DNA of 34,309 bases from assembly GCA_038064495.1 (NCBI GenBank), contig JBBTSZ010000002.1, positions 413,524 to 447,832 on the forward strand. Reading direction: 5' to 3'. Shown here piece by piece: positions 30,667-32,111 of this stretch (the first letter of the stretch is position 1; each line of letters begins with the position of its first letter). The stretch is from Patescibacteria group bacterium. GTDB taxonomy: Bacteria > Patescibacteriota > Minisyncoccia > Phycocordibacterales > Phycocordibacteraceae. The position numbers were made by a program, and so were the translations under genes. The notes below the pieces were generated by a model. It ran no database searches. It saw only the letters and a program-made list of their open reading frames with translations, and was not told where the DNA came from.

Positions 30667-30903
30667 TTATGAGCCGAATTGCTTATGGAGATATTTCATA
30701 ATGTCATCGGATTCGTAAAGCATGGTGCTCGTCTCGTCATCCACCATAAATGGCATCTGTCTCTTCCCGCCAAGCTCCAGGAGTTCTGCGGCAAAGACGG
30801 GGTCATGGATGTCTTTCAAGATAAGTGGAGCCTCTACTTCCTTCGCGACCTCTACCGTTTTCGCGCAGTACGCACAGTTCGGGTTGATGTAGAGGGTTAT
30901 CAT
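30667..30903 (-). CDS. Glutaredoxin / GST N-terminal domain protein
   Basis: CAYC, GGKRQMPFMVD, YESDDIMKYL. Confidence 0.9.
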   Translation of the reverse strand: MITLYINPNCAYCAKTVEVAKEVEAPLILKDIHDPVFAAELLELGGKRQMPFMVDDETSTMLYESDDIMKYLHKQFGS

Positions 30904-30921
30904 ATCCCCGTAGTATAACCG

Positions 30922-30949
30922 TTGCCGAATACTCGTTTTCAGCTAGAAT
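30922..30949 (+). promoter_or_regulatory. Putative promoter for the GIY-YIG/tRNA-Asn unit
   Basis: TTGCCG-N16-TAGAAT. Confidence 0.45.
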
Positions 30950-30999
30950 AAGCCCTGCGCCACTTTTGGTGGCGCATTGTGCAGATTAAAGCAAGAAGT

Positions 31000-31045
31000 C
31001 ATTCCGCGGCTCGCCTCGCTGAGGCTTGGCGAAGCGGGTAGCTCA
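31000..31045 (+). repeat. Duplicate of tRNA-Asn 5' end interrupted by a 29-bp palindrome
   Basis: CATTCCGCGG[CTCGCCTCGCTGAGGCTTGGCGAAGCGGG]TAGCTCA versus CATTCCGCGGTAGCTCA at 31283-31299. Confidence 0.75.
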
Positions 31046-31049
31046 TATA

Positions 31050-31295
31050 ATGAAGCTGTATATTCTTAAAAGCGTTTCGTTTCCAAAAACGTATGTTGGT
31101 ATTACAGCAAATTTAGAGAGGAGGTTGAGAGAACATAACTCGGGACAAAGCACCTATAGCAAACGCTATAAACCATGGGAGTTGATTCATACAGAAGAAT
31201 TCGACACTATGTTTTTGGCTCGAATCCGTGAGAAGTTCTTCAAGACTGGTGCTGGTAGACGTGAAATTGCAAAGTTATTAGACATTCCGCGGTAG
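31050..31295 (+). CDS. Stand-alone GIY-YIG nuclease (81 aa)
   Basis: LYIL..TYVGIT.NLERRLREHN.G..Y.PWEL..E..AR.RE..FK; last codons and stop lie inside the tRNA 5' end. Confidence 0.92.
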   Translation: MKLYILKSVSFPKTYVGITANLERRLREHNSGQSTYSKRYKPWELIHTEEFDTMFLARIREKFFKTGAGRREIAKLLDIPR

Positions 31296-31319
31296 CTCAG
31301 TGGTAGAGCAGGTCGCTGT

Positions 31320-31873
31320 GGAGAAGGTTCCTGGTATACTCAAGTGTGTATGCCAGAGACAAGAACCTATGCCGACCGCCGAGAGTACTTGAAAGAGGCT
31401 GTTAAGAAGCGGCGAAAATTCCTTCGAGAAAAGGCTTGCGAGTACGGAGGCGGAAAGTGCATGATTTGTGGCTATAAGCGTTGTTCAGCTGCACTTGATT
31501 TTCACCACATCGATTCCAAAGCAAAAGAGTTTGGTTTGTCTGCAAATGGACTGACTCGCTCTTGGGAAAAGATGAAGGCTGAATTGGATAAGTGCGTCTT
31601 GATATGCGCCAACTGTCACAGAGAAGTACATGCAGGCATTGCGCAGCTTCCAACGGAAACGTTGGTTGAAAAACGAGGTGAATTCGGGGAAACCCTCACG
31701 CGAAAGCGCGGGCAATCCCGAGCCAAGCCTGTGCGAAAGCACAGGAAGGTGTAGAGACTATCCCGTAAGGGAGTACTTGGTCGCAAGATCTGGGAAGCGC
31801 CTCGCACCCACACTCATCAAGCGATGAACGGGTGATGATATAGTCCATACTTTCGGTAACGAAAGACCATATG
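31320..31873 (+). ncRNA. Group I self-splicing intron (554 nt) at tRNA position 35/36
   Basis: Exon ends in U, intron ends in G; IGS CGCAGC 31642-31647; P3 CGAGGTG/CGCCTCG; P4 TTCGGG/CCCGAG; P7 GACTAT/ATAGTC; P8 CACCC/GGGTG; P9 CTTTCG-GTAA-CGAAAG. Confidence 0.92.
31350..31754 (+). CDS. Intron-encoded HNH homing endonuclease (134 aa)
   Basis: CMICGY..LDFHH..CVLICANCHREVH zinc-finger HNH signature; starts in the P1 loop and reads into the ribozyme core. Confidence 0.9.
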   Translation: MPETRTYADRREYLKEAVKKRRKFLREKACEYGGGKCMICGYKRCSAALDFHHIDSKAKEFGLSANGLTRSWEKMKAELDKCVLICANCHREVHAGIAQLPTETLVEKRGEFGETLTRKRGQSRAKPVRKHRKV

Positions 31874-31920
31874 TAACGACTTGGTCGTAGGTTCGAATCC
31901 TACCCGCGGAGCTTGTTAGG

Positions 31921-31944
31921 AAAATCGCCCTTTGGGGCGATTTT
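31921..31944 (+). terminator. Hairpin/terminator after tRNA-Asn
   Basis: AAAATCGCCC-TTTG-GGGCGATTTT. Confidence 0.7.
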
Positions 31945-31949
31945 GCGTT

Positions 31950-32085
31950 ACGAGCTCCCGGAGTGAGCACCGCATGCTCACGAGTAGGATTCGAAGATGT
32001 TGCGAGCATTTAGCAAAGCAAAATCCACAACGTGTACAGGTCCTGTAAGTACCGAAAGCGTACTCGCGCTCTTACCCGCGGAACT
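31950..32085 (+). repeat. tRNA-Asn 3'-end duplication (inverted copy 31950-31995, direct copy 32070-32085)
   Basis: CGAGTAGGATTCGAA matches the reverse complement of 31892-31906 at 14/15; TCTTACCCGCGGAACT matches 31898-31913 at 14/16. Confidence 0.8.
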
Positions 32086-32111
32086 AGACATAACTACTAT
32101 TTTCAGTATAG

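Follow-up and report, generated by a model that had tools for sequence, protein, structure and literature searches.

What is a small nuclease gene doing inside a transfer RNA (tRNA) gene, and why does the first part of that tRNA gene occur twice? The question is raised by a tRNA-Asn locus in a 34,309-nucleotide (nt) stretch of a Patescibacteria group genome (GCA_038064495.1, contig JBBTSZ010000002.1, positions 413,524 to 447,832; the whole stretch is called the window, and its positions are used throughout). The window lies in a source genome, G000, of 703 kb that is rated 98% complete. At this locus a GIY-YIG nuclease gene and a short palindrome stand between a broken and an intact copy of the tRNA-Asn 5' end. 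Comparison of the sequence with its relatives suggests that the stretch 31010-31285, within the beginning of the tRNA-Asn gene, is probably a minimal selfish nuclease-plus-hairpin cassette and one member of a widespread family.

A broken tRNA-Asn 5' end upstream of a complete tRNA-Asn gene

The window reads CATTCCGCGG at 31000-31009, continues with a 29-nt insert, CTCGCCTCGCTGAGGCTTGGCGAAGCGGG, at 31010-31038 and resumes with TAGCTCA at 31039-31045. The unbroken 17-mer CATTCCGCGGTAGCTCA lies at 31283-31299, and the two halves upstream (31000-31009 plus 31039-31045) repeat it at 17 of 17 positions. The original prediction, made from the DNA letters and their translations, had described this repeat, its interruption by a 29-bp palindrome, the 81-amino-acid (aa) GIY-YIG gene between the copies and a stop codon formed by tRNA nucleotides 8-10. 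Direct reading confirms all of these. The first nucleotide of the tRNA is T31286, and the stop codon of the GIY-YIG gene is therefore tRNA positions 8-10. The last three codons of the gene plus TAG overlap the tRNA. Between the two repeat copies, the 81-aa frame is the sole sizeable plus-strand open reading frame (ORF); the ORF list gives it as an 89-aa frame from an upstream TTG. The stretch 31010-31285 comprises the hairpin, tRNA positions 8-14, the GIY-YIG gene and a fresh copy of the first tRNA bases. The tRNA promoter, the leader and the first 14 tRNA nucleotides are left upstream as a broken copy, and the complete tRNA gene follows the cassette (Table 1).

In the whole 703-kb genome, the 10-mer CATTCCGCGG occurs twice on the plus strand and once on the minus strand. 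The rough chance of this 10-mer and the adjoining 7-mer being so arranged within 300 nt is about 7e-7. Recurrence of the layout elsewhere is a stronger argument for the split repeat than this estimate. A 371-nt contig from another study is identical to 30916-31286, without a single difference. The assembly is sound, because this independent contig matches the promoter, the broken copy, the hairpin and the ORF.

A pattern for the tRNA-Asn 5' exon, with up to 3 mismatches allowed, is present in 35 of the 121 genus genomes. Thirty loci, including the window, were fetched. With 30 family proteins as tblastn queries, the GIY-YIG gene is found in one of the 30, the window's own, and in none of the 29 others. 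The original prediction had proposed a search for empty alleles, and related genus genomes carry tRNA-Asn without the cassette. One of these loci (L031) has a 34-nt 5' exon identical to the window's, and its promoter, leader and tRNA are present, with the cassette and the intron both absent.

The cassette-free loci have a common order, in which a TTGC.G..AT...TTTTC.GCTAGAAT block is followed by a GC-rich leader hairpin, (a)CAT and the tRNA. Window positions 30922-30949 align with this block in five cassette-free relatives (L037, L039, L049, L051 and L054), and the promoter assignment draws on these five together with an oriented reading of the genus loci. Both the promoter and the leader hairpin (30956-30976) are upstream of the broken copy. 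Because the promoter of cassette-free alleles lies there, the cassette is placed between the tRNA promoter and the tRNA body. Within 30800-32100, 30922-30949 is the only plus-strand promoter-like site, which is consistent with the predicted use of the tRNA promoter by the nuclease gene.

An additional partial copy of the tRNA 5' end, without an ORF, is clear in 9 and weak in 1 of the 29 other genus loci. Such copies look like scars or ORF-less derivatives. They have short spacers in L040, L044, L053, L059, L034 and, weakly, L048. In L042, L043, L046 and L056, a non-coding, hairpin-rich insert of about 170 nt interrupts a long tRNA-Asn copy, which covers positions 1 to about 31, immediately upstream of the intact tRNA. 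This insert is conserved among the four genomes and looks like an ORF-less relative of the cassette.

The tRNA-Asn gene of a further genome (G001) is too diverged for the pattern and has a second, unrelated cassette behind its native promoter. The protein is about 40% identical. The hairpin, TCCGCCAGCTGGCGGA, differs from the window's and splits the copy after tRNA position 13. The two tRNA copies in G001 differ from one another in a way that does not give the direction, that is, which of them is native.

Table 1. Features of the tRNA-Asn locus in window coordinates
Feature	Position	Strand	Basis
Native tRNA-Asn promoter: TTGCCG, 16-nt spacer, TAGAAT	30922..30949	+	Only plus-strand promoter-like site in 30800-32100; aligns with the block of cassette-free alleles
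Leader hairpin TGCGCCAC-TTTT-GGTGGCGCA, between promoter and tRNA start	30956..30976	+	Palindrome search; corresponding GC-rich hairpin in cassette-free relatives
Displaced partial copy, part 1: leader bases CAT (3) and tRNA-Asn nucleotides 1-7	31000..31009	+	
Imperfect palindrome of 29 nt, CTCGCC...GGCGAAGCGGG, splitting the partial copy between tRNA positions 7 and 8	31010..31038	.	
Displaced partial copy, part 2: tRNA-Asn nucleotides 8-14, TAGCTCA	31039..31045	+	
GIY-YIG nuclease gene, 81 aa, ATG 31050, TAG 31293-31295	31050..31295	+	Pfam PF01541
Intact tRNA-Asn(GTT): 5' exon 31286-31319, group I intron 31320-31873, 3' exon 31874-~31912	31286..31912	+	ARAGORN i(35,554), Rfam RF00028
HNH endonuclease ORF, 136 aa, within the group I intron	31344..31754	+	Pfam PF01844

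Recurrence at other RNA genes and the hairpin

The window protein matches 51 of 61 relatives at E<=0.001, with at most 6 matches per genome, 104 places in total and none more than 48% identical. The remaining 10 of the 61 relatives have no match. The best 70 of the 104 places (30 given loci and the next 40 by E-value) were examined. Twenty of these 70 are directly 5' of a same-strand tRNA, which is Asn, Ser, Leu, Tyr, Val, Gln, Glu or Thr. A partial 5' copy upstream of the gene scores at least 13 in 16 of the 20 and above 17.8 in 9; the window scores 17. In mismatched controls (n=520), the 95th percentile is 13 and the 99th percentile is 17.8. A GC-rich palindrome splits or abuts 15 of the 16 partial copies. 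The homologs were thus compared for the three traits that the original prediction had singled out, namely tRNA adjacency, duplication of the 5' end and the palindrome.

Insertion at tRNA 5' ends, as predicted, is supported by these 20 places, but the 5' end is not the sole site. One further locus of the 70 is linked to a tRNA 3' end. Two places are in 16S rRNA, three are beside transfer-messenger RNA (tmRNA) and one, assigned by eye, is in ribonuclease P (RNase P) RNA. About 14 of the 70 places are enclosed by inverted repeats. Scans of the collection with the window protein give 23 loci from several phyla, 12 of which are tRNA-linked by the same 90-nt rule. Among these collection loci are mirror-image cases, in which an intact tRNA is followed by the gene and then by a hairpin and a 3' partial copy. 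The layout is also found in Saccharibacteria, Planctomycetia and others. A TAG stop codon from tRNA positions 8-10 recurs at tRNA-Val (L008), at the tRNA-Asn of a Planctomycetia metagenome-assembled genome (L070) and at tRNA-Ala (L169, L171).

The family members at structured-RNA genes other than tRNA are L017 and L117 (16S rRNA), L009, L019 and L094 (tmRNA) and L018 and L067 (RNase P RNA). The RNase P RNA of the last two received no Rfam call and is named by eye, from the conserved GGAGGAAAGTCCG stretch only. At the rRNA and RNase P sites, the enclosing inverted repeat would extend a helix. Another set of small GIY-YIG genes (L012, L016, L020, L022, L086, L095 and L109, and also L010 and L014) lies between protein genes in an inverted repeat of 12-21 nt, often ATCCCGTTAGAGA ... 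TCTCTAACGGGAT. In this set, the far arm shares bases with the stop codon and directly adjoins the ATG of the next gene.

The proteins nearest to the window's (49-53%) are at tRNA-Gln(TTG) (L061, L074 and L168). In L074, CTCGCC-TTC-GGCGAAG is directly after the acceptor stem, and its arms, bulged base and position are those of the window hairpin. L061 and L074 have a second hairpin in common, the arms of which are the reverse complement of the window's arms. The nearest protein neighbor shares the hairpin class at a different tRNA in five cases: the window (Asn) with L061/L074 (Gln), L004 with L089, L103 with L100, L084 with L104 and L062 with L064. Three loci with the TCCGCC...GGCGGA class do not cluster. 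Overall, hairpin type tracks the clade of the protein rather than the tRNA. There is direct evidence that a hairpin comes or goes as a whole: L061 and L074, whose proteins are 99% identical, differ at tRNA-Gln by a clean indel of about 19 nt, made up of the hairpin CTCGCCTTCGGCGAAG and 3 further nt. It is placed directly behind the acceptor stem in the displaced copy.

A genome-wide count of the palindrome, also called for by the original prediction, gives one copy in G000 by exact search and three by gapped pattern. Both additional copies are within coding sequence (L124/L126). The copy in rplC (C2:80769-80798) is in frame in the last codons (..SSPRSNSGEAGKS, then stop) and is identical to the window copy at 24 of 30 aligned positions. 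The copy in rplW (C2:81706-81735) is in frame in the N-terminal tail (..KKPRLADARAKRVP..) and is identical at 27 of 30. The predicted likeness to repetitive extragenic palindromic (REP) sequences is a loose one, as there are only three copies and two of them are within coding sequence.

Across the genus, the hairpin pattern is found in 7 of 121 genomes (6 of 120 besides G000) with 11 copies, and a reversed control gives 1 hit. Of these copies, most measure exactly 30 nt and fall within long ORFs, where they are read in several frames; the two of 29 nt are in non-coding sequence. The hairpin consensus is free of stop codons in every frame. A strong GIY-YIG match (E<=1e-9) is present in 5 of the 6 other hairpin-bearing genomes versus 20 of 114 hairpin-free genomes (one-sided Fisher p 0.0014, calculated over kin that are not independent). 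The N-termini of L23 from 16 genus genomes, when aligned, are too low in complexity to prove a clean 10-codon insertion. L23 of G000 is 134 aa long; for the other 15 genus genomes the open frames mostly have 120-133 aa and reach 166, and one match is in a 399-aa frame read through TAA.

These distributions bear on whether the hairpin and the nuclease belong together. The hairpin could be an independent miniature palindromic element that is moved by another activity and tolerated in the broken copy, with the GIY-YIG gene a separate free-standing gene of the homing type and no functional tie between the two. This is unlikely. It would explain why 10 of the 11 genus hairpin copies, all except the window's, have no GIY-YIG gene within about 1.5 kb, and why the hairpin pattern is absent from G087, G139 and G078, which have the closest GIY-YIG relatives in the genus. 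The motif of the related Ssn nucleases, described below, is likewise unmatched. An independent hairpin does not account for the five pairs in which hairpin class follows protein clade across different tRNAs, for the palindrome at 15 of 16 partial copies or for the excess of strong GIY-YIG matches in hairpin-bearing genomes. The agreement between the window and L074 in arms, bulged base and position after the acceptor stem also argues against it.

The nuclease and its possible roles

The window protein has a GIY-YIG domain by Pfam (PF01541, E 1.3e-14, 54.6 bits versus a cut-off of 22.6), and the whole-genome family search also finds the gene. A search of NCBIfam returns no family for either nuclease of the locus (GIY-YIG or HNH). 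In 30 aligned relatives, Y4, Y15, G17, R25 and H29 are invariant and E49 is nearly invariant, and all six are kept in the window protein. Its Tyr of the GIY element, Tyr of the YIG element, Arg, His and Glu are presumably the catalytic residues of the active site. The nearest solved sequences are 1YWL (UPF0213, E 9.8e-6), SLX1 (E 0.0012) and 1ZG2 (E 0.023).

Only two pairs of relatives allow the ratio of nonsynonymous to synonymous substitution (dN/dS) to be measured. It is 0.07 for L061 versus L074 and 0.12 for L099 versus L106. In older pairs, the proteins are 72-85% identical and the synonymous sites are saturated. From these low ratios and the conservation of the proteins, it follows that the family proteins are under selection. 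With its catalytic-type residues kept and the family dN/dS low, the window protein is predicted to be functional.

About 15 of the 70 matches form a classical UPF0213-like clade with a GA[HK]YT motif, and their genes are between protein genes. This clade is separate from that of the window, which is without the motif and is tied to RNA genes. G000 contains a second small GIY-YIG gene (C2 ~153,740-154,030; L172 1372-1761) with a GAKYTK motif. It is of the UPF0213 type, lies between protein genes with no tRNA nearby and belongs to the housekeeping-looking clade, distinct from the window's gene.

Selection of this kind would also be seen in a domesticated small nuclease that benefits the host and is kept by tRNA genes for repair, tRNA-locus upkeep or defense, with the partial copies as by-products of local recombination. 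Such a role is distinctly improbable here. The gene is present in only 1 of the 30 genus tRNA-Asn loci, 10 of the 61 relatives have no match and others have up to 6 copies. A different lineage occupies the same tRNA in G001, scars and broken copies are found at L093, L082 and L072, and the nearest relatives of the window's gene are at tRNA-Gln instead of tRNA-Asn. Points in favor of a host benefit, apart from the purifying selection, are the tRNA-Ser(GCT) and tRNA-Tyr cassettes, which are kept across distant lineages with saturated synonymous sites, and the presence in G000 of the classical UPF0213-type gene. In a 2006 survey, stand-alone prokaryotic Slx1-like GIY-YIG proteins are regarded as vertically inherited repair enzymes (PMC1564403).

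It is very improbable that the protein instead acts on RNA, processing or cleaving the co-transcribed tRNA precursor, with the broken copy and the hairpin as an RNA element that recruits or regulates it. The location of family genes inside or beside genes for tRNA, 16S rRNA, tmRNA and RNase P RNA would suit such a role, and the window hairpin has several G-U pairs when read on the sense strand. The authors of the 2006 survey suggested an RNA role from the fusion of GIY-YIG with a tRNA methyltransferase of the TrmH type, and among 12 of the 18 survey passages that match tRNA this fusion is the sole mention in the body text (PMC1564403). Presence and absence among close relatives speaks against a needed processing factor, and hairpin copies within protein-coding genes are hard to tie to tRNA processing. 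The Ssn nucleases, the one characterized family of single-domain relatives, cut single-stranded DNA and not RNA (PMC11893778).

A chance match or an assembly artifact can be set aside as extremely improbable: many organisms in the samples share the tRNA 5' part, which breaks short-read contigs, but the chance estimate is low, the identical 371-nt contig from another study spans the locus from promoter to ORF and the same layout is present in many other genomes.

As far as sequence comparison goes, the nuclease-plus-hairpin selfish element of the original prediction is supported by its presence at 1 of 30 tRNA-Asn loci, by a patchy, multi-copy family, by a hairpin that tracks the protein clade and by additional hairpin copies. 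Several results weigh against it. The two 17-mer copies are identical, so the native one cannot be told from the other. In 4 of the 20 tRNA-5'-linked genes there is no detectable partial copy, and a duplication of 13-54 nt is accounted for by no known GIY-YIG cut. The GIY-YIG domain alone fills the 81 residues and leaves no DNA-binding domain of the kind found in proven homing endonucleases. Certain cassettes that share a tRNA are old, as judged by saturated synonymous sites, and long retention for host benefit would look alike. Folded as free RNA, the hairpin region shows no stability beyond that of shuffled sequences (-19.9 kcal/mol, z -0.81). The published SRM pattern of the Ssn system is matched in 0 of 43 family loci, and G000 has 3 matches versus 2-7 in 5 shuffles. 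To these are added the solitary hairpin copies and the three hairpin-free genomes with close GIY-YIG relatives, given above. Finally, no contig joint that skips the cassette, and so no empty allele from the same population, is found in 4 sequencing runs, one of which has no coverage over 31002-31265; neither the missing joints nor the coverage gap counts for or against an empty allele.

Related systems, a possible mechanism and the tRNA-Asn intron

Integrase-borne islands and prophages target tRNA genes, are flanked by a partial tRNA repeat and leave one tRNA copy intact. In these elements, the 3' part of the tRNA is duplicated and the enzyme is a tyrosine or serine recombinase. The cassette differs in its size (<300 bp), in the duplication of the 5' part and in its content, as the sole ORF between the repeats is a nuclease. 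An integrase-type island was rejected for this locus, since there is no recombinase and the repeat is the tRNA 5' end.

The cassette is instead most like fungal mobile ORFs, phage SegB and the Ssn nucleases. This is a likeness only and no membership is assigned, as there is no DNA-binding domain and the Ssn motif is unmatched. SegB is a phage protein with more than a catalytic domain, and Seg-type enzymes join the nuclease to a DNA-binding domain. Presence and absence at an otherwise conserved site in relatives, a Seg-like trait, is found for the cassette. SegB of phage T4 is, like the cassette, a GIY-YIG nuclease gene among tRNA genes, a free-standing homing endonuclease in a tRNA cluster (PMC2330249). 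Its recognition site includes conserved tRNA-gene sequence, and it spreads with adjoining tRNA sequence (PMC2330249). SegB lies between tRNA genes, whereas the cassette is inside one, and the abstract of that paper describes no duplicated tRNA fragment or hairpin (PMC2330249).

Fungal mitochondrial mobile ORFs (mORFs) are described from Allomyces macrogynus atp6 and from Glomus atp6, atp9, cox2 and nad3 (PMC3630166). They resemble the cassette in four ways. A free-standing endonuclease ORF (GIY-YIG in atp9) is within an essential gene; a duplicate gene end arrives with it, so that one intact copy is expressed with the displaced native end beside it; the ORF and the gene end can be in phase and co-transcribed; and gain and loss occur between close relatives (PMC3630166). 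The host gene of the cassette is a bacterial tRNA, and it is the 5' end that is duplicated, over only 13-54 nt. The cassette nuclease is a bare 81-aa domain and the displaced copy is split by a conserved palindrome, also unlike mORFs. The mORF trait of a foreign working end beside a native displaced end is not distinguishable in the window, where the two copies are identical.

The Ssn nucleases (e.g., SsnA of Neisseria meningitidis) are single-domain GIY-YIG proteins of about 90 aa, like the window protein (PMC11893778). NTS/SRM hairpin repeats adjoin the gene and are scattered in the genome, and the authors note an arrangement like that of insertion sequences (PMC11893778). The window hairpin has 3 copies in its genome, not hundreds. 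The word tRNA occurs 0 times in the Ssn paper (PMC11893778). The Slx1-like/UPF0213 proteins (PDB 1YWL, 1ZG2) are single minimal domains of about 80-110 aa, and the window protein, at 81 aa, is likewise a minimal GIY-YIG domain without a C-terminal Asn region (PMC1564403). Unlike these, the window gene has no housekeeping-like fixed position, as seen from 1 of 30 tRNA-Asn loci and from nearest relatives at tRNA-Gln.

Palindromic mini-elements inside genes are known, such as the Rickettsia palindromic elements. The window hairpin resembles them, as a short palindrome with several copies, some in frame in protein genes and one beside a small nuclease gene. REP sequences with their RAYT enzymes and IS200/IS605 elements are palindromes tied to a dedicated enzyme, as outlined in the Ssn paper (PMC11893778). 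Unlike these, the cassette has no HUH transposase, with only GIY-YIG shown by Pfam, and its unit is 29-30 nt with very few copies.

We infer mobility and cleavage for this cassette, and they could be brought about as follows. The tRNA promoter would drive a single transcript that covers the nuclease gene and continues into the tRNA. The RNase P cut at 31285/31286, the tRNA +1, would fall in codon 79 and remove the last codons and the stop. Given the established function of RNase P, precursor that escapes processing would then be the only source of full-length nuclease, and the amount of enzyme would stay low. The enzyme may cut the DNA of cassette-free tRNA genes or close to them, its own hairpin in single strands after the manner of the Ssn nucleases, or both. 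Recombination repair by the host would then supply the cut gene with a copy of the hairpin, the nuclease gene and the tRNA 5' segment next to it, with conserved tRNA sequence on both sides as homology. This copying step is modeled, by analogy, on fungal mobile ORFs that carry a replacement gene end. Homology to the tRNA on both sides would explain the tRNA framing of every copy and the constant presence of an intact tRNA. The 29-30-nt hairpin would be the cognate site of the nuclease and could also spread alone. Inside the displaced copy, the hairpin possibly destroys a recognition site, interrupts a direct repeat that would otherwise delete the cassette, or serves as a binding site for the nuclease.

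A broader proposal is put forward tentatively and is rather doubtful. A bare GIY-YIG domain and a stop-free palindrome of 29-30 nt might form a two-part mobile system of a new class, without a transposase or integrase. The nuclease might recognize hairpins extruded by single-stranded DNA, both its own palindrome and the arms of tRNA and other structured-RNA genes, and host repair might then copy the cassette and rebuild the end of the invaded gene. Essential proteins, L3 and L23 among them, might acquire in-frame insertions of 10 codons from the palindrome alone.

If the cassette reading is true, the element would be among the smallest self-propagating DNA elements known, at <300 bp with one 81-aa protein. 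It would live in indispensable genes and evade counter-selection by rebuilding the gene end. In ultra-small bacteria and other phyla, it would account for many odd "tRNA fragments" and small "GIY-YIG family" genes, and also for some tRNA genes missed by annotation. Single-domain GIY-YIG nucleases specific for hairpins, which attract interest as single-stranded DNA tools, would be given a natural setting. The use of tRNA positions 8-10 as the stop codon points to a coupling of nuclease synthesis with RNase P processing that is intrinsic to the layout. No description of a bacterial GIY-YIG cassette nested in a tRNA gene is found in the full-text literature searched, a search that excludes most subscription journals and supplements; Supplementary Data 3-5 of PMC11893778 (homologs and motifs) could bear on whether the window's clade was included there.

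The tRNA-Asn gene that follows the cassette contains a group I intron (Rfam RF00028, 70.1 bits versus a gathering score of 50). ARAGORN, run on the locus with introns allowed, gives tRNA-Asn(GTT) at 31286-31912 with an intron of 554 nt. The gene was missed by plain ARAGORN on the window and was also not listed by ARAGORN with introns on the whole genome. The ends of the intron are fixed, because, in 4 of 4 sequencing runs, 31319 is followed directly by 31874 in contigs from other organisms whose tRNA-Asn has no intron. The HNH domain encoded in the intron matches PF01844 (22.6 bits versus a cut-off of 21.4, E 1.2e-4). The prediction that a single tRNA locus holds two unrelated nucleases is borne out, with both the GIY-YIG gene and the intron-borne HNH gene confirmed. 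A second intron between tRNA positions 7 and 8 was considered for the split copy and rejected, as it would need neither a duplicated 8-14 segment nor a second full 5' end.

The intron site is between anticodon positions 35 and 36 and is polymorphic in the genus (window 31320-31873; loci L031-L060). Of the 30 genus loci, 16 have an intron-less tRNA-Asn gene of 72 nt. The gene measures about 285-298 nt at 6 loci and 387-406 nt at 2; another 4, the window among them, have a gene of 625-649 nt, and for the remaining 2 no 3' end was located. The short intron forms (spans of about 285-406 nt, without an ORF) are therefore in 8 of the 30 loci and the size of the HNH-ORF form is in 4. The three other long-intron tRNA-Asn loci have no GIY-YIG gene by tblastn with the 30 family proteins. 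The intron and the GIY-YIG cassette are gained and lost independently of each other.

ARAGORN lists only 24 tRNA genes in G000, and the intron keeps tRNA-Asn off this list. At C2:514754-515402, a possible tRNA-Lys(CTT) is flagged that would contain an intron of 555 nt. More tRNA genes of G000 may be hidden by introns or insertions.

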